Below the pieces are notes generated by a model, which worked only from the letters and a program-made list of their open reading frames with translations, had not been told where the DNA came from and searched no databases. Positions 29,753 through 48,706 of a stretch of DNA of 54,998 bases are shown here, piece by piece. The stretch is taken from assembly GCA_017609445.1 (NCBI GenBank), contig JAFCDY010000002.1, positions 1-54,998 on the forward strand, given 5' to 3'. How positions within the stretch are numbered: position 1 is the first letter of the stretch; each line of letters opens with the position of its first letter. The position numbers were made by a program, and so were the translations under genes. The DNA is from Candidatus Aenigmatarchaeota archaeon. Lineage in GTDB: Archaea; Aenigmatarchaeota; Aenigmatarchaeia; Aenigmatarchaeales; Aenigmatarchaeaceae.

Positions 29753-30043
29753 GTGAATAATTTGACATTCAGTTCAGAGATAAAAAAGACGCCTCTAAAA
29801 CAAGGAGACCAATACAAGGTGAAAATAACTTCTGAAGAGAACGGAAAGGGAACAGTTAAAATAAAAGAACACACAGTGTACGTGAACAACACAAAAAAAG
29901 GGGACAAAGTAAAGATAGTGATAACAGATGTCGCCAGAGAGAAAGCAAACGGAAAGGTCATACTTTCCACAGAAGGTCTCACTGAGGATGGATTAAGCGA
30001 AGAAGTAGCTGAACTGGAAGAAAGAGAAGGTGATTTAATATGA
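29753..30043 (+). CDS. TRAM-domain protein
   Basis: KQGDQYKVKITSEENGKGTVKIKEHTVYVNNTKKGDKVKIVITDV fits the TRAM beta-barrel pattern. GTG start in the track. Confidence 0.6.
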   Translation: MNNLTFSSEIKKTPLKQGDQYKVKITSEENGKGTVKIKEHTVYVNNTKKGDKVKIVITDVAREKANGKVILSTEGLTEDGLSEEVAELEEREGDLI

Positions 30044-30330
30044 ATATAGGTGAATTAAGCCCTGGGATGAGCAATGTTAGCTTAACGGCAAAGGTTTCTG
30101 AGGTATCTGAACCAAAGCAGGTTACTACAAAATTCGGAACCCAGACAACTCTTACAAACATTAAGCTAAAAGACGAAACCGGAGAAATACCAATGGCTCT
30201 TTGGGGACTGCAGTCTGACGGAATATCAGAAGGCTTGGATGTGGAGATCAGCGGCGGTTTCACAAAAGAGTTCAGAGGAACATTGCAGTTGGGAATTGGA
30301 AAATCAGGTTCTATCAAGCCTGTTCAATAG
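30040..30330 (+). CDS. Single OB-fold nucleic-acid-binding protein (short RPA/SSB-like)
   Basis: VSLTAKVSEVSEPKQVTTKFGTQTTLTNIKLKDETGEIPMALWG...LQL is the typical OB-fold pattern. ATGA overlap with the TRAM gene. Confidence 0.65.
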   Translation: MNIGELSPGMSNVSLTAKVSEVSEPKQVTTKFGTQTTLTNIKLKDETGEIPMALWGLQSDGISEGLDVEISGGFTKEFRGTLQLGIGKSGSIKPVQ

Positions 30331-31044
30331 GCCCAGAAAAGTGCCGTCGAGGAGATAGATTTCTGATTCTCCCCAATTTAGAATATTCTTCAGGATAGGT
30401 CCAAGGGGTTTGAAATCTCTAGAATTAAAAGGCATTCCGCCTATTATTGGGTTGAACACAGGCATTATTATGCAGTCTTCTAGATTTGCTTTTTTCTTAT
30501 ATTTTTTCTCTATTTTTTTGTTCCAAATAGAACATTTTAGCCAGCAATGTTCCACTGACCGGTAACCTCTCATCCAGAACTCAATCGCCGGGTGGACGTG
30601 AGCTATTACCAGATGTTTTGCCTTGAGGCAGTCTTCATCAAACCAGGCCTGGCCATGGCAGAACGCATGATCCTTGATTCTAAAGCCCTTTGGATTGTAG
30701 ATTCTTATTTTTTTATTGACCAGTGCCTCTATATCGCCGTCATGATTTCCCTTTACTATTGAGACCTTTACTTTTCTTGATATTGAGTTGAGGAAGGCTG
30801 GGATTTCTTTCGATTCCTGCCAGGATATATTGGGAACCTGGTGCTTTATGTCGCCTAGGATTATGAGTTCTTTTGCTTTTGTCTTTTTTATCAGACTGAA
30901 AATCCTCTTTTTTAGTTTGTCTAATTGTGAGGGTATTGATATTCCCGACTTGTAGATCTCGTATTCTATACCAATATGAAGGTCTGCTATGATCAGGGTC
31001 TTTCCTAATAAGAGGGCTGGTTCTGTCAGGAATCTTGCTTTCAT
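30304..31044 (-). CDS. SbcD/Mre11-related metallophosphoesterase (archaeal MJ0037-like)
   Basis: Motifs IADLHIG, LGDIKH, GNHD, HGQ and AHVHP. Its 3' end overlaps the OB-fold gene by 27 nt. Confidence 0.8.
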   Translation of the reverse strand: MKARFLTEPALLLGKTLIIADLHIGIEYEIYKSGISIPSQLDKLKKRIFSLIKKTKAKELIILGDIKHQVPNISWQESKEIPAFLNSISRKVKVSIVKGNHDGDIEALVNKKIRIYNPKGFRIKDHAFCHGQAWFDEDCLKAKHLVIAHVHPAIEFWMRGYRSVEHCWLKCSIWNKKIEKKYKKKANLEDCIIMPVFNPIIGGMPFNSRDFKPLGPILKNILNWGESEIYLLDGTFLGLLNRLDRT

Positions 31045-31131
31045 AATAATAGTGAATTTCCAAGATATTTATTTCTCATTCATTTCTGGTGGGTTATGTT
31101 ATTAACCATAAAGTAGTAAATAACCGATAAG

Positions 31132-31163
31132 TTTATATAGTACTAGACACTACTATGTAGTAG
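31132..31163 (+). promoter_or_regulatory. TATA-like box (TTTATATA, 31132-31139) followed by the palindrome CTACTATGTAGTAG (31150-31163)
   Basis: Read directly. The palindrome sits between the TATA box and the ATG at 31172, an operator-like position. Confidence 0.45.
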
Positions 31164-31171
31164 TGGTAAAT

Positions 31172-31291
31172 ATGAATATTGCGGCGTTACTTCAAAAAAA
31201 GGCAGAAAAAGCTGTCAGCGATCCAGAAGGATTTAGAGATGAGTATATGGACGACACAAGGAAGGAAGCTCTCAAGAGGTATGGTGAGTGA
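31172..31291 (+). CDS. Small ORF (39 aa), possible antitoxin-like partner of the downstream PIN-like gene
   Basis: Own translation: MNIAALLQKKAEKAVSDPEGFRDEYMDDTRKEALKRYGE*. The stop lies 5 nt before the ATG of the next ORF and overlaps its upstream GTG. Confidence 0.3.
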   Translation: MNIAALLQKKAEKAVSDPEGFRDEYMDDTRKEALKRYGE

Positions 31292-31296
31292 GTTTT

Positions 31297-31830
31297 ATGG
31301 CTCAGGTTTCTGGTGCAAGTGCAGGTGGAGCAAATTTTTCTAATGCTGGTTATGTTAATCCTGTAAATGTGTGGGATACTTCAAGTTTGATTGAAATAAG
31401 TGGTTCGCCATCATATAACGGTATACCTGGTGGTCAAAATATGACTACTTATGGCGGCAAAGGTGAGACAAGTGCCTACGCCCGTAGGGGTAGGATTGAT
31501 ACGGAACTTGCTGATGCAGTAGAAGTAGGATCAGTCCAAGATGAAAAAAGTTTTAAAGACTTGGCTAGTTTTGCTGCAGTTGTATCAAACCGCTTACCTG
31601 TTGTTAAAAGGGGCATGAGTAGTCCTCTTTCACATACAGATTCCAGGATTGTAGCTCTTGCAATTAGATATAGTATTGAAAACGGGGTTCTTGTTAATCT
31701 TTATTCAGAAGACCTCGCACTATTGCAAACTGCTAATGAAGTGTTAAAAGACATACCAGAAGCTGATGTTAATCTGATTTCAATTAGAAATGAACAAAAC
31801 CACGGACGTTATCCAGATCACTACGTCTAA
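31297..31830 (+). CDS. PIN-like nuclease domain protein (VapC-like?)
   Basis: Acidic PIN-like motifs are present: VWDTSSLIEI (N-terminal Asp), ..TELADAVEV.., HTDSRIVALAI and LVNLYSEDLALLQ. It uses CGT/CGC arginine codons, which are unusual for this window. Confidence 0.4.
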   Translation: MAQVSGASAGGANFSNAGYVNPVNVWDTSSLIEISGSPSYNGIPGGQNMTTYGGKGETSAYARRGRIDTELADAVEVGSVQDEKSFKDLASFAAVVSNRLPVVKRGMSSPLSHTDSRIVALAIRYSIENGVLVNLYSEDLALLQTANEVLKDIPEADVNLISIRNEQNHGRYPDHYV

Positions 31831-31832
31831 TT

Positions 31833-32300
31833 TCAAATTTCTTCAGGTCCAGCTATTTTAACAACCTTACTGAAGCCGTCTTTTTCTTTATCTCTCTCCA
31901 GCCTATACAAATACCCAGAAACAGCTGTCTCCAAGTTTGGGTCGTGTGTAATCAGAAATATCTGATCCACAAATTCAGAAACCTTGTCTCTCAAGACATT
32001 GGCCAGGTCCTCTACAGCTCTCGAGTCTAGATTATGGGTAGGTTCATCCAGGACCAACCACCTCAGCTGCGGTGCTAATACAAGAGCAAAGGCAATTCTC
32101 AAAGCCAAACAAGCTATAGACCGTTCGCCCCCAGAAGCAGTACCATCTGCAGGTATCCAGCCAGTGCTGTCTTCTAATTGTAAAATATAGTCCCCTTCCT
32201 CTATTCCCAGCCTTACCCCATAGAGATCCTTATAGGGATATAACTCTGGCCATATTGCTTCCATCGCCTGGTTCACAGCTGAGACAAAATTCTTTCTCAA
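31833..32300 (-). CDS. rad50: Rad50 C-terminal segment (signature, Walker B, D-loop); frame open upstream to 32345
   Basis: TASGGERSIACLALRIAFALV (signature), LVLDEPTHNLD (Walker B/D-loop) and ITHD (H-loop). Confidence 0.85.
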   Translation of the reverse strand: MRKNFVSAVNQAMEAIWPELYPYKDLYGVRLGIEEGDYILQLEDSTGWIPADGTASGGERSIACLALRIAFALVLAPQLRWLVLDEPTHNLDSRAVEDLANVLRDKVSEFVDQIFLITHDPNLETAVSGYLYRLERDKEKDGFSKVVKIAGPEEI

Positions 32301-34111
32301 TTGCTCTTGAGTGGAGACAATGGCTTTAATCTTTTTTTCTTTTCTTCAGCAATAGAAGAGATATTATTCATGTTGGTTTCAATTTCTTTTTCAAGCACTA
32401 TCAGGTCTTTGAATTCTTTCTCAAGATTTTCTAAAACTGTTGCCGAAAACCTAGAATAGTTTTGTTTTTCTTGCTTTAGATCATTCACTTTGTTATTATA
32501 CTCCTTTATTCTTTCAAATTTGTCATTAACTTCTTTCTTTTTCGATATAAAGTCCTTTGTCTCATCCCTTCTCTCTTTAAGTTCATCTGTCTTCTTTTGT
32601 ATCATACTCAGGGTTTTTTCTAACATCTTCCTCTCATTCAAATGTTCGAAAATCTCCCCTCTAAGCACCTTCAAGGCGTCTTTTGCAAATTTCAGTTCTT
32701 TGTCCTTGTCTTTTATGTTCTCGTATCTCTTTATTAGATCATCTATCTGGCTTAAATCCCTTTCTAATTCTTCTACAGAACTTTTTAACTTCTTTATTTC
32801 TTTTTTAGACTTGACTATAGTCTTTTGCAGGTCTCTAATGTTCTTTTTCTTCTTATCCATGATAATCTTCTTCTTTTTAGACGATAGTTTATTATCACAA
32901 ATAGGGCAAGAATCCTTTAATTTCTTGAATTCTGTGATGCTTTTGTCAATCTGCTCAATCTCAACCTGAGCTCTCTGAAGAGCTAACTGGTTAAATTCTA
33001 GCTCTTTCTTCAATTTAGACAGCTTTTTATCTGAATCTTTAACTTTAAGCTTCTTTAATTTCTTCTTTAGTTCATCCCTCTCCCTTATGATCTCCTCTAA
33101 TTCGGGAATCTTCTCAGAAACCATCAAAGTAACCTTAGCTTCTTTTTGCGCAATCACTTTAATCAAGAAATCAAAATTCGATCTTTCTTTTTCGAGGCTT
33201 TCCTGAATCTTGCTTATCTCAGTTGTGAGATTTCTGAATTCCCTCTCAAGGTCCTGGTCTGTTTTTTCAGCTATTGGCATGAGGCATTCTTTTAGTTTTT
33301 CTATATCTTTTTCAGCGACTTCTAGGAGAGCGCTTTGAGTTTTTATCTGCTCTTCTATTTCCTGTATCCTTTTTTGTTGTTTTTTTAGATTAGTTACTTC
33401 TTTTTCAACAAACTTCCTTCTGTCAGTTGTTTGAGATAACTTTTTATCAAGATTATTCTTATCCTGTATTAATTTCTCTAGTTCTCTTTTGATTGTATCA
33501 AGTTTTTTCAGGCTATCGTCAGATTCTAGATTTTGGTAGACTTGCTTTTTTTCTTCTATTGAAGTTTTTAGTTTTCTGGAGACTTGTTTGGCGGTTGCTT
33601 TTGCCTTTTCAAACTTGTCTATTGATAATAGCTGGTCTATTTTTTTCATTCTGAGTCCCTTTGGGATAGTTAAGAACATATCCAATTGGTTCTGTTCTGA
33701 ATAGATAGCTCTGGTGAATAGATCATAATCTAGTTTTAAGAGTGAGTTGACTTGTTTTGTCACCTTGGTTGATTGCGGGGATTCAACTAGATGGGCGTTC
33801 TTTCTCAGCTCAGCTGTTGTTCTTCCCTTGTCTATCAGCCTCTTGACTGTCCACTCGTTGTCGTCCAGCTGGAAGGTGACAGATACTTCTGCTCTGTCCT
33901 GTTTTTTTGGTTTTTTCATGATAATGTCTTCCAGCTTTATTTTCTTTGATTGTAAAGTTGGGAAGGTTCCGAACAATGCAAAACAGATTGCGTCCAGGAT
34001 AGAGGTTTTTCCTGCTCCCATTGAACCGATAAAACAGTTTGTTCCCTCTGAGAAATCGATATTTGTATCTAAGTGAGATCTCCAATTTTTGAGTTGTAGT
34101 TTGGTTATCAT
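32297..34111 (-). CDS. rad50: Rad50 N-terminal segment (Walker A, coiled coil, zinc hook)
   Basis: LKNWRSH...GSMGAGKTSILDAICFALFG (Walker A), a long K/E-rich coiled coil and a CPICD zinc hook. It ends 11 codons after an A7 run, where the frame switches to the C-terminal segment. Confidence 0.85.
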   Translation of the reverse strand: MITKLQLKNWRSHLDTNIDFSEGTNCFIGSMGAGKTSILDAICFALFGTFPTLQSKKIKLEDIIMKKPKKQDRAEVSVTFQLDDNEWTVKRLIDKGRTTAELRKNAHLVESPQSTKVTKQVNSLLKLDYDLFTRAIYSEQNQLDMFLTIPKGLRMKKIDQLLSIDKFEKAKATAKQVSRKLKTSIEEKKQVYQNLESDDSLKKLDTIKRELEKLIQDKNNLDKKLSQTTDRRKFVEKEVTNLKKQQKRIQEIEEQIKTQSALLEVAEKDIEKLKECLMPIAEKTDQDLEREFRNLTTEISKIQESLEKERSNFDFLIKVIAQKEAKVTLMVSEKIPELEEIIRERDELKKKLKKLKVKDSDKKLSKLKKELEFNQLALQRAQVEIEQIDKSITEFKKLKDSCPICDNKLSSKKKKIIMDKKKKNIRDLQKTIVKSKKEIKKLKSSVEELERDLSQIDDLIKRYENIKDKDKELKFAKDALKVLRGEIFEHLNERKMLEKTLSMIQKKTDELKERRDETKDFISKKKEVNDKFERIKEYNNKVNDLKQEKQNYSRFSATVLENLEKEFKDLIVLEKEIETNMNNISSIAEEKKKRLKPLSPLKSN

Positions 34112-34112
34112 T

Positions 34113-34577
34113 TTACAACAAACCAAGTCTTTTCATTATCATTGGTACGAACTTTGCATCAAAGATTATAACCTTTCCTTGATCAACTAATTTTTGAAAT
34201 TCTTGCTTGTTGACAAATCTCAATTCATTGAATTCATTATCAGTTGCCTTTTCAAGATCTGGCTTGGTTAATAATTCGCAGACAAAATACATGGCAATTC
34301 CTAACCATTCGTCGTACTCGTTGCTGAATTGTCTGGGGTTGCAGTCAAAGAAAAACGGCAATTTGTCTTTGACCTTTATATCAGCACCTAATTCTTCTCT
34401 GATTTCCCTCTTAAGCGATTCAATAACATCTTCTCCAGGTTCCAGCCCGCCACCTGGAATCTCCCAGTGATTTCCTTTCATTCCTCCTTCATGTTGAGGC
34501 TCAAAACCTATCAATACCTTGTCTTCGTCAAGTGCAATCATCTTCACTGACACGTAAAGTGGAATTCTTTTACTCAT
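34113..34577 (-). CDS. Nudix hydrolase
   Basis: Nudix box GGGLEPGEDVIESLKREIREELGA. It overlaps the mre11 stop by 8 nt, and its own stop lies 1 nt before the rad50 ATG. Confidence 0.85.
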   Translation of the reverse strand: MSKRIPLYVSVKMIALDEDKVLIGFEPQHEGGMKGNHWEIPGGGLEPGEDVIESLKREIREELGADIKVKDKLPFFFDCNPRQFSNEYDEWLGIAMYFVCELLTKPDLEKATDNEFNELRFVNKQEFQKLVDQGKVIIFDAKFVPMIMKRLGLL

Positions 34578-35760
34578 TTTTCTTCACCAACAAATTGAAA
34601 ATATCCTCAGAGTCGCCCTCTACTAATAGATCAAATATATCCTGGATGTTTATATCACAATTCAGTTGTTTCAAATTATCTTCAAGTATCCTGATTCCAT
34701 GTTCCTCTGGCGAGAGCTTCTGTTCTCTTATTAGCTTGACTAATTCGACCTGCTCTTTAAGACTTTCTGATTTTAGTTTTCTGTCGATCTTAATTATCGC
34801 TCTGTCAGAGTACTTCCTTTCTATTTCATTGAAATCAATAGGAGCAGAATCTTTTGGAAGCGTTCCTTTTATTTTTAGTACTGCTATTGGTTTGTTTTGC
34901 ATCTGGGGAATGCTGCCCAACATACTTTCTACATCGTTAGCAATGTTTGAAGTGTATTCAAACTCGTTCCAGAATATTTTTCTTTGCGACTCAAGAGGTA
35001 TTTTTTTTATCTCTCCATTGTATTGATAGACATACTTTGGTTGAAGTGATTCTGTTTTATGAAGAGAAGTATATGTAGTGCTGCCGGTTAAGAGAAACTT
35101 TCCACTGTTTAGATCTTTGATTTCGCTCCAGTGTATGTGACCTAAAATGTACAGATCAAAACCATTCGGAAGGTCCTGCAGTTTTATTGTGGGCGGCTCA
35201 AGAGGAGAATAGATATAGGGTTCGATGCTCTGGTGGAACATCAAAATGTTCAACGCGTCTGGAATTGGTTGTGGATTCCATTCTCTGAGAACAGAGCCAG
35301 CATACCTGTCTGGAACGCCGGACATTCCGTGTATGGCTACTTTTTTTCCATCAACTTCAAAGACAGCTGTTGAACAGTTCAGATGGATCAGCAGCCCTGC
35401 ATGTTCTAAAGCCTGTATTGGATTAACCAGATGCTTTGATCTTCTCTCATGCGTCCCGTGAATTGCTACTATTGGTATTCCTCTCAGAGCTAGAGGCGAT
35501 ATTTCATGTTTTTCCTTGTTTTTTATCTCTGAGAAGGATGTTCTGGATGGAACATGTTGGGCTTTTGACAATATTCTGGCTGCTCTTGAAAATACTTCAG
35601 GTCTTGGAACTCTTGTGTCGAATATGTCTCCTGCCATCAGGATTAGATCAGAGTCAAGTGATTTTTCTATTGCTTCCTCCAATCCTAGGAAAGAGTCTTC
35701 TCCTCTCTCTGATCCATATGCAAATCCACAGTGACAATCAGAAAATATAGAGATTTTCAT
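34570..35760 (-). CDS. mre11: DNA double-strand break repair nuclease Mre11
   Basis: Phosphoesterase motifs SDCHCG, AGDIFD, GTHE(RR), GHIH and HQ. Confidence 0.9.
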   Translation of the reverse strand: MKISIFSDCHCGFAYGSERGEDSFLGLEEAIEKSLDSDLILMAGDIFDTRVPRPEVFSRAARILSKAQHVPSRTSFSEIKNKEKHEISPLALRGIPIVAIHGTHERRSKHLVNPIQALEHAGLLIHLNCSTAVFEVDGKKVAIHGMSGVPDRYAGSVLREWNPQPIPDALNILMFHQSIEPYIYSPLEPPTIKLQDLPNGFDLYILGHIHWSEIKDLNSGKFLLTGSTTYTSLHKTESLQPKYVYQYNGEIKKIPLESQRKIFWNEFEYTSNIANDVESMLGSIPQMQNKPIAVLKIKGTLPKDSAPIDFNEIERKYSDRAIIKIDRKLKSESLKEQVELVKLIREQKLSPEEHGIRILEDNLKQLNCDINIQDIFDLLVEGDSEDIFNLLVKKNE

Positions 35761-35915
35761 GTTAATAATGTCACTAAGAAATATTTAAATCGTTTTACTG
35801 ATAATTATAGGCGGGTGTCTGGATGGGTGAACTAATTCCACTATACAGATGAATCATCTAGTTATTTCTACAAAGTTTTTAAACAAGCAATACGAATTTG
35901 TAAAGGAGGATTAAT

Positions 35916-48181: not shown

Positions 48182-48706
48182 TTGGTGGAACAAATAATAC
48201 TTGTTGATGAAAATGATAATGAGATAGGGTTTGAAGAAAAGATCAAAGCCCATGAAGACGGAGGAAAGCTTCACAGAGCTTTTTCTATTTTCATATTTAA
48301 CTCCAAAGGTGAGATGCTGATACAGCAGAGAGCATCCACCAAATGGGACTTTGCTGACTTTTGGACAAACACGTGCTGTTCCCATCCGAGGAAAGGAGAG
48401 AAACTGGAAGATGCTATCCATAGAAGACTTAAAGAGGAATTTGGTTTTGATACAGAACTGAAAGAAGTATTTAGTTTCGTATATAAAGGATCAGACGGCG
48501 TGACTGGATTAACTGAATATGAATTTGATCATGTTTTTATTGGAACATTTAACGGCGAGCCAAAACCAGACCCAGAAGAAATAGGAGATTACAAATGGAT
48601 AACAATGGAGGAACTAAAGAAAGATGTGAAAAATCATCCAGAAAAATATACTCCCTGGTTTAAGATAGTTTTAGAGAGATTTGACAAGGAAAACCAAACA
48701 AAATAA
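48182..48706 (+). CDS. idi: Isopentenyl-diphosphate delta-isomerase, type 1 (Nudix fold)
   Basis: LHRAFSIFIFNSKGEMLIQQRA, WTNTCCSHP and EYEFDHVF correspond to the type-1 IDI catalytic Cys/Glu regions. The start is TTG or GTG at 48182/48185, after GAGGTG. Confidence 0.85.
   Translation: MVEQIILVDENDNEIGFEEKIKAHEDGGKLHRAFSIFIFNSKGEMLIQQRASTKWDFADFWTNTCCSHPRKGEKLEDAIHRRLKEEFGFDTELKEVFSFVYKGSDGVTGLTEYEFDHVFIGTFNGEPKPDPEEIGDYKWITMEELKKDVKNHPEKYTPWFKIVLERFDKENQTK

Follow-up and report, generated by a model that had tools for sequence, protein, structure and literature searches.

The response to DNA double-strand breaks universally begins with Mre11-Rad50, whose archaeal partners HerA and NurA were themselves discovered through gene neighbourhood. 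Here we describe a gene for a small Nudix hydrolase that lies between mre11 and rad50 in a stretch of 54,998 nucleotides (nt), referred to below as the window, from a Candidatus Aenigmatarchaeota archaeon (assembly GCA_017609445.1, contig JAFCDY010000002.1, positions 1 to 54,998). Nudix genes of four unrelated subfamilies are found at this same spot in the lineage, suggesting that nucleotide clean-up and break repair are connected in a way not yet described. Such a functional link appears likely because the mre11|rad50 junction works as a slot that has repeatedly been given enzymes of this kind. From sequence and gene context, we regard it as an even call that the Nudix protein is a co-expressed, nucleotide house-cleaning accessory of the mre11-rad50-pdeM repair operon of Aenigmatarchaeota.

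Organization of the locus

The Nudix gene is located between mre11 and rad50 on the minus strand, as the original prediction had stated (Table 1). The end of mre11 and the start of the Nudix gene overlap by 8 nt. At the other end, one A separates the Nudix TAA (34113-34115) from the rad50 ATG at 34111 (MITKLQLKNWRSH...), a gap of 1 nt. A well-placed archaeal TATA box was seen upstream of mre11 only, and neither the Nudix gene nor rad50 has comparable intergenic space. The position of the TATA-like box is compatible with a leaderless operon transcript. GC content is even over the three genes, that of the Nudix gene being 0.37-0.39, like its neighbours. Based on this gene anatomy, we infer that mre11, the Nudix gene and rad50 are co-transcribed and translationally coupled. 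The original prediction had described the three genes as one tightly coupled operon. Their co-directional packing without intergenic space agrees with that description; the coupling, however, is read from gene anatomy, rad50 is broken in this genome, and pdeM must be added as a member. Long open frames hinted at an Mre11-Nudix-Rad50 fusion, and this was rejected, as the genes occupy separate frames with stops.

The identity of the flanking genes is well supported. The translation of mre11 contains the motifs SDCHCG, AGDIFD, HGTHE and GHIH. It scores 55-58 bits against the NCBIfam Mre11 equivalogs and thus does not reach their cut-offs (500-600 bits); the lineage is a divergent DPANN one. The protein is 48-77% identical to the Mre11 that relatives encode beside rad50, and mre11-rad50 synteny is kept in more than 100 loci. 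Rad50 was recognized by AAA_23 (104 bits) and NF003034 (154 bits), with the zinc-hook Pfam model at 22.7 bits, just below its cut-off of 24.3.

The window's Nudix protein

The type A protein, as we call the Nudix protein of the window, scores 53.6 bits against PF00293 (gathering threshold, 21.1). Its box, G43-x5-E49-x7-R57-E58-I59-R-E61-E62-L-G64-A65, fits the canonical GX5EX7REUXEEXGU, as had been claimed for it, and nine type A proteins with an overall identity of only 38-54% share the catalytic residues E49, R57, E58, E61, E62 and G64 without exception. An AlphaFold2 (AF2) model with a pLDDT of 81 has the alpha/beta/alpha Nudix fold; it gave 552 matches in the PDB at E<=1e-3, the best 50 of which are all Nudix enzymes. 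Nearest by fold in Foldseek are MutT2, NudI, BdRppH/RppH and DR1025 (E ~3e-9, TM 0.7-0.8), and nearest by sequence is NudI (3oga, E 2.6e-9). By these analyses, type A is a MutT-like enzyme of small size, with one domain and an undamaged catalytic box.

Assignment to a subfamily by profile search, which had been proposed as a check, placed the protein in the Nudix superfamily and went no further, since no NCBIfam equivalog reached its cut-off. The best was NudI (NF012016, 46.6 bits versus a cut-off of 95), and MutT (TIGR00586) gave 37.3 bits versus 97.9. The best sequence and fold matches to type A (3oga by sequence; 5zrp/3n77 in Foldseek, E 3e-9) are NudI of E. coli/Salmonella and MutT2 of M. 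smegmatis, small MutT-like pyrimidine (deoxy)nucleoside triphosphate ((d)NTP) pyrophosphohydrolases. They resemble it in being single-domain proteins of about 150 amino acids with a canonical Nudix box; identity, however, is only 22-24%. Type A forms a small lineage-restricted clade; of 1.84 billion cluster representatives, 22 match it at E<=1e-10.

Recurrence of Nudix genes at the mre11-rad50 junction

The junction was surveyed in several sets of relatives, in which genomes are designated by G and loci or contigs by L numbers, G000 being the genome of the window. These were 41 other genomes of the same GTDB order, 21 further genome contigs, 80 metagenome contigs retrieved by a profile of the Rad50 N-terminus, and 100 loci around mre11 from other families of the class, located with a chimeric Mre11+Rad50N query and then fetched by coordinates. 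An insert was defined as at least 300 nt at the mre11|rad50 junction, counts are based on 119 species representatives with linked mre11-rad50, and inserts were identified by Pfam and hhalign.

Within the order, 29 of the 41 genomes have mre11 immediately next to rad50, with a gap of 6-42 nt, and in one family the two genes lie on separate contigs. Two genomes carry an insert: G014, with an open reading frame (ORF) of 129 amino acids and no family match, and G012, with a 158-amino acid Nudix protein whose gene overlaps both neighbours. In most relatives the two genes are 6-60 nt apart, in line with the earlier remark that a Nudix gene is not a standard member of this operon. Among the 119 species, 22 have an insert in the slot, and in seven of these it is a Nudix gene. 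With types A, B, D and E all present at the junction, the arrangement recurs beyond this genome; it was the opposite, an arrangement unique to this genome, that the original prediction had named as fatal to it.

Every slot Nudix gene overlaps, or lies within 9 nt of, both of its neighbours. Between the four types, similarity is confined to the Nudix box. Type B of G012 is a full-length MTH1/NUDT1 orthologue (E 1.8e-35 to PDB 5otn); its alignment with zebrafish and human MTH1 spans the whole protein, GFG..WNGFGGK and WxxD are kept, and the L106 protein keeps WPDD. This likeness to MTH1 belongs to the G012 protein and not to that of the window, with which it shares only the Nudix box. Type D is nearest to the Ap6A hydrolase Ndx1 of Thermus and an Ap4A hydrolase of Aquifex, and type E to the MutT-related 3grn and to NudI. 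All four types are small, have a single domain and belong to enzyme classes whose substrates are nucleoside polyphosphates. The earlier guess that the window's protein cleans damaged dNTPs gains indirect backing, at the level of sequence and predicted fold, from the MTH1 orthologue in the slot of G012 and from the proximity of the type A fold to MutT2 and NudI.

Type A itself occupies the slot in five other lineages (L233/L234, L232, L229, L048 and L051). A search of the protein index with the single window sequence returned only itself; a profile of four sequences was then used and, combined with context look-ups, found L229, L232 and L233/L234, while L048 and L051 came from the metagenome contigs. 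In L233/L234 the 8-nt overlap and the 1-nt gap are exactly as in the window, with Mre11 73%, the Rad50 N-terminal part 80% and Nudix 53% identical. L232 has type A in the slot beside an Mre11 that is 77% identical. L229 reads mre11, Nudix (49% identical), an intact rad50 of 790 amino acids and then pdeM. The L229 and L233/L234 loci show that the arrangement is conserved in the window's close clade and co-exists with an intact rad50. A foreign origin of the Nudix gene, and with it the recent insertion that had been set as a refuting outcome, was rejected, since there is no compositional anomaly (GC like the neighbours) and the nearest homologues are from Aenigmatarchaeota.

Nudix types account for four of the nine protein families found in the slot. 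A rough binomial estimate puts the probability of this at p ~1e-6, or ~1e-4 if only small genes are eligible. Counted by species, Nudix genes are in the slot in 7 of 119, versus ~1.2 expected from random placement. When 1.40 Mb from 201 loci was scanned with a hidden Markov model (HMM), 10 Nudix genes lay in the slot, three were attached to the operon and only one was elsewhere in the flanks; the HMM was built from the slot types and therefore under-detects other Nudix genes.

Accessory function or neutral insertion

Based upon these observations, a dedicated accessory slot can be proposed, with repeated recruitment of nucleotide-directed phosphohydrolases (at least four Nudix subfamilies, HAD, inositol-monophosphatase-like and NYN proteins) and with functional, perhaps physical, coupling to Mre11-Rad50. 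We offer this broader proposal tentatively and would not call it probable. The main competitor of an accessory role is neutral hitch-hiking, in which promoter-less small genes of streamlined DPANN genomes survive at the tolerant junctions mre11|rad50 and rad50|pdeM, and abundant, mobile Nudix genes land there with no tie to repair.

Several observations weigh against an accessory role, and many of them speak for hitch-hiking. The slot holds at least nine unrelated families; besides the Nudix types, NYN, inositol-monophosphatase (IMPase), HAD, type C and orphan ORFs enter it, so that it is generally permissive, and the second slot, between rad50 and pdeM, is equally variable (opposite-strand HerA, membrane proteins and others). 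On the Mre11+Rad50 tree the inserts are patchy and require at least nine changes. Close sisters with nothing in the slot exist for each insert-bearing locus, inserts are absent from ~80% of linked loci, and within one small clade the slot is variously empty, occupied by type A (L051) or occupied by type B (G012). Type A is also found in unrelated contexts, between kae1 and rpS27e and after unknown genes. In the sister genus represented by G016, its orthologue (L024 3436-3849, G016:C1) shares 8 nt with the 3' end of leuS, and so this small gene is coupled in translation to another gene altogether. An MTH1-like gene is present in 59 of 371 genomes and lies in the slot only in G012. The genus-level excess of Nudix is modest (~4 observed versus ~0.7 expected, p ~0.007, all rough estimates), and the type A tree lacks the resolution to separate a single slot capture from multiple ones. 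Finally, Nudix genes are common in this genome, a DPANN metagenome-assembled genome (MAG) of 0.74 Mb in 62 contigs and 88.6% complete: its eight PF00293 genes represent ~1% of its genes, a high share for so reduced a genome.

Other evidence is hard to reconcile with hitch-hiking. Four unrelated Nudix subfamilies in the slot, plus two more on the operon, far exceed a background of 1-3%. The arrangement and the catalytic residues persist in kin whose Mre11 is only 61-77% identical. Further, nearly all identifiable inserts are Mg-dependent phosphohydrolases or nucleases, which is no random sample of genes. Weighing both sides, we favour the accessory role over neutral hitch-hiking, which is a serious contender though less likely than not.

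As a separate observation, G033 carries an MTH1-like Nudix gene divergent to rad50 and 372 nt from its start (G033:C92:3312-4744); no mre11 was found in that genome, which is 81% complete.

A second alternative is that the Nudix protein acts on nucleic-acid ends, removing 5'-adenylate, NAD or ADP-ribose caps or ADP-ribosylated ends for Mre11-Rad50-PdeM. The neighbours do process ends (Mre11 and the PdeM-like phosphoesterase, with an NYN nuclease or a HAD phosphatase in the slot elsewhere), the fold search also returned the RNA pyrophosphohydrolases BdRppH and RppH with scores similar to those of MutT2 and NudI, and weak Nudt16-like Pfam matches were obtained for L048 and L051. On the other hand, type B is a clear orthologue of MTH1, which acts on free oxidized purine dNTPs, and the 154-amino acid protein of the window has no extra nucleic-acid-binding domain. 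Scores against the ADP-ribose/NAD(H) pyrophosphatase equivalogs are only 16-17 bits where more than 150 are required (NudE, 16.8 versus 169; NudC, 15.7 versus 158). The ADP-ribose and capped-end substrates suggested earlier find no support. We regard end-deblocking as an unlikely role.

The state of rad50 must also be considered, since it weighs against an accessory role at this particular locus and was left out of the earlier description. Here rad50 is split into two ORFs instead of forming a single one of ~790 amino acids. Against five relatives, the descending coiled-coil arm is short by ~31 codons, a loss that is not balanced by any gap in the ascending arm. Because of these missing codons, adding one A to the A7 run near the frame change would not give a Rad50 of normal length. 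Three readings of the break are conceivable: a true loss of ~94 nt, a Rad50 that works as two pieces, or faulty assembly of the repetitive K/E-rich coil. The split, the one-sided loss in the coil and the 62-contig assembly would suit a decaying or mis-assembled locus, with rad50 a pseudogene and the Nudix gene marking a degenerate operon of no present function. We consider this very improbable, given the same gene order with an intact 790-amino acid rad50 in L229, the matching junctions in close kin, the retention of all motifs in both rad50 pieces (the C-terminal piece is 87.6% identical to the C-terminus of the L229 Rad50) and the intact Nudix box; a two-piece Rad50 is also conceivable because the TTG start overlaps the stop (TTGA).

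An anti-phage defence reading was rejected as well. PADLOC gave generic matches only, namely PDC-S07 for the Nudix protein (47.6 bits; type B matches it too) and SMC-like ATPase matches, and no specific system model.

Proposed role in break repair

If the Nudix protein is a house-cleaning accessory of the repair operon, we predict the following. The operon would be transcribed from the promoter upstream of mre11. Ribosomes terminating on mre11 would translate the Nudix gene with the help of the 8-nt overlap and the GGTGA, and rad50 would be translated by re-initiation 1 nt past the Nudix stop. The enzyme would hydrolyse nucleoside polyphosphates, presumably damaged or non-canonical (d)NTPs and possibly dinucleoside polyphosphates, and nucleotide house-cleaning would in this way be at hand whenever the break-repair machinery is made.

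We can only speculate on the purpose. MTH1 and MutT remove oxidized purine dNTPs, whose incorporation and repair generate strand breaks, and the Nudix protein might keep oxidized nucleotides out of repair synthesis. It might also clear nucleotides, such as dinucleoside polyphosphates or damaged ATP, that poison the ATP/adenylate-kinase site of Rad50. PMC3476278, citing Bhaskara 2007 and Lammens & Hopfner 2010, attributes both ATPase and adenylate-kinase activities to Rad50 and describes binding of Ap5A to the related SMC ABC site. Either oxidized-dNTP breaks or Rad50-site nucleotides would make a co-expressed Nudix enzyme useful.

Should this prove true, the convergent recruitment of Nudix enzymes, one of them a clear MTH1 orthologue, would point to an unstudied need in break repair, either for a sanitized nucleotide pool or for the removal of inhibitory nucleotides, when and where repair takes place. 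A lineage-specific Nudix clade and the pdeM-like phosphoesterase would each gain a candidate function. Furthermore, the recruitment would show a route by which genome-reduced DPANN archaea gain functions, with promoter-less genes being slotted into existing operons. The idea is directly testable with recombinant proteins.

Comparison with known systems

Similar to the archaeal herA-mre11-rad50-nurA operon, the locus carries mre11 just ahead of rad50 in the same orientation, with coupled junctions and the Mre11 and Rad50 motifs. It differs in having neither herA nor nurA in the operon, a COG1407 pdeM-like gene as its conserved third member, and an inserted Nudix gene. The bacterial Lhr-PdeM-ligase damage-response cluster likewise has a PdeM-family phosphoesterase among repair genes; here, in contrast, the gene that pdeM accompanies is rad50, neither a ligase nor Lhr was seen in the operon, and the score against the PdeM model TIGR04123 (69.9 bits) stays below its cut-off of 150 bits. 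We know of no report of MTH1 inside an mre11-rad50 operon. A full-text literature search combining Nudix with Mre11, Rad50 or operon, and with HerA/NurA, found no link of a Nudix gene to this operon; one genome-context paper ties Nudix to TFS, not to Mre11-Rad50.

pdeM and other contents of the two slots

The original prediction reported an SbcD-related phosphoesterase, an OB-fold protein and a TRAM protein at 29753-31044, and all three are present. It had placed them just beyond the operon, which is true of the TRAM and OB-fold proteins and not of the phosphoesterase. In ~40 related loci (range L025-L225), a pdeM gene comes no more than ~150 nt after rad50 and in the same orientation; the conserved unit in Aenigmatarchaeota is therefore mre11-rad50-pdeM, without herA or nurA.

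Table 1. Features of the window and of the compared loci
Feature	Position or source	Strand	Basis or remark
mre11 (396 amino acids), first operon gene	34570-35760	minus	Metallophos 1.8e-10; Mre11 equivalogs below cut-offs
Type A Nudix hydrolase (154 amino acids)	34113-34577	minus	PF00293
mre11 stop TAA/Nudix start ATG overlap, 8 nt, ATGAGTAA	34570-34577	minus	read from sequence
GGTGA, Shine-Dalgarno-like, 6 nt upstream of Nudix ATG, within mre11 coding sequence	34584-34588	minus	putative function
TATA-like box TTTAAATA, centre ~26 nt upstream of mre11 ATG	35782-35789	minus	read from sequence
Nudix box, residues 43-65, GGLEPGEDVIESLKREIREELGA	34383-34451	minus	translation
rad50 N-terminal ORF (604 amino acids): Walker A, coiled coil, CPIC zinc hook	32297-34111	minus	profiles and motifs
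rad50 C-terminal ORF (155 amino acids): signature SGGERS, Walker B LVLDEPT	31833-32300	minus	profiles and motifs
rad50 break: frame change near A7 run; TGA stop overlaps TTG (TTGA)	32297-32345	minus	
Second variable slot, rad50|pdeM, opposite-strand ORFs	31045-31832	plus	792 nt
pdeM-like phosphoesterase (COG1407, SbcD-related)	30304-31044	minus	TIGR00024 113 bits; PdeM TIGR04123 69.9 bits
Nudix-domain genes of G000 besides slot gene	window 48269-48661 (plus); contigs C52, C41, C9, C4, C50, C1		
Slot insert, Nudix type A	G000		
Slot insert, Nudix type B	G012; metagenome contigs L104/L106/L107		
Slot insert, Nudix type D	G056, G057, G058		
Slot insert, Nudix type E	G074, G076		
Slot insert, NYN domain (171 amino acids)	G253 and six species of one genus		PF01936 133 bits; predicted nuclease
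NYN slot loci	L150, L159, L169, L172, L192, L195, L140 (G256-G262, G253)		whole genus and one genome of another family
Slot insert, inositol-monophosphatase family (~260 amino acids)	G109, G111, G117, G081 (L170, L175, L194, L206)		PF00459 183 bits
Slot insert, HAD phosphatase	G057 together with its Nudix (L190); G059 (L202)		PF00702
Slot insert, type C (122-131 amino acids)	G014, G083; metagenome L058, L068, L074, L095		no Pfam match
Type C loci	L032 2615-3004; L058 2628-3017; L068 1054-1431; L074 2332-2727; L095 2627-3004; L196 (G083)		
Slot insert, orphan ORF	G120		
HerA-like gene (~500 amino acids) between rad50 and pdeM	L139 6192-7718	minus	DUF87 113 bits; also in many family-f15 loci

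Among the other inserts of the first slot, type C evolves very fast, since its members are only 14-26% identical while the Mre11 and Rad50 of their hosts are far more similar. Its AF2 model is mostly helical and of low confidence (pLDDT 58).

In the second slot of the window, the opposite-strand ORFs at 31128-31830 (plus strand), including one of 180 amino acids at 31288-31830, had no match in Pfam, NCBIfam or PADLOC. NurA was not found in G000, which is 88.6% complete, and its HerA-like DUF87 genes lie on contigs C32 and C7 only, outside the operon. The equivalent position in L229 holds a Yip1-family gene on the opposite strand, and in many other genomes the second slot contains an opposite-strand HerA gene, with membrane proteins and others also seen. 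Further Nudix genes are attached to the operon downstream of rad50. In L033 a type F Nudix (PF00293, 29.5 bits) follows rad50, and L031 has the same Nudix after an extra ORF. The idea that the family originally had its Nudix gene after rad50 was considered and rejected, as only these two loci show this order. In L182, a Nudix gene begins 1 nt after pdeM.

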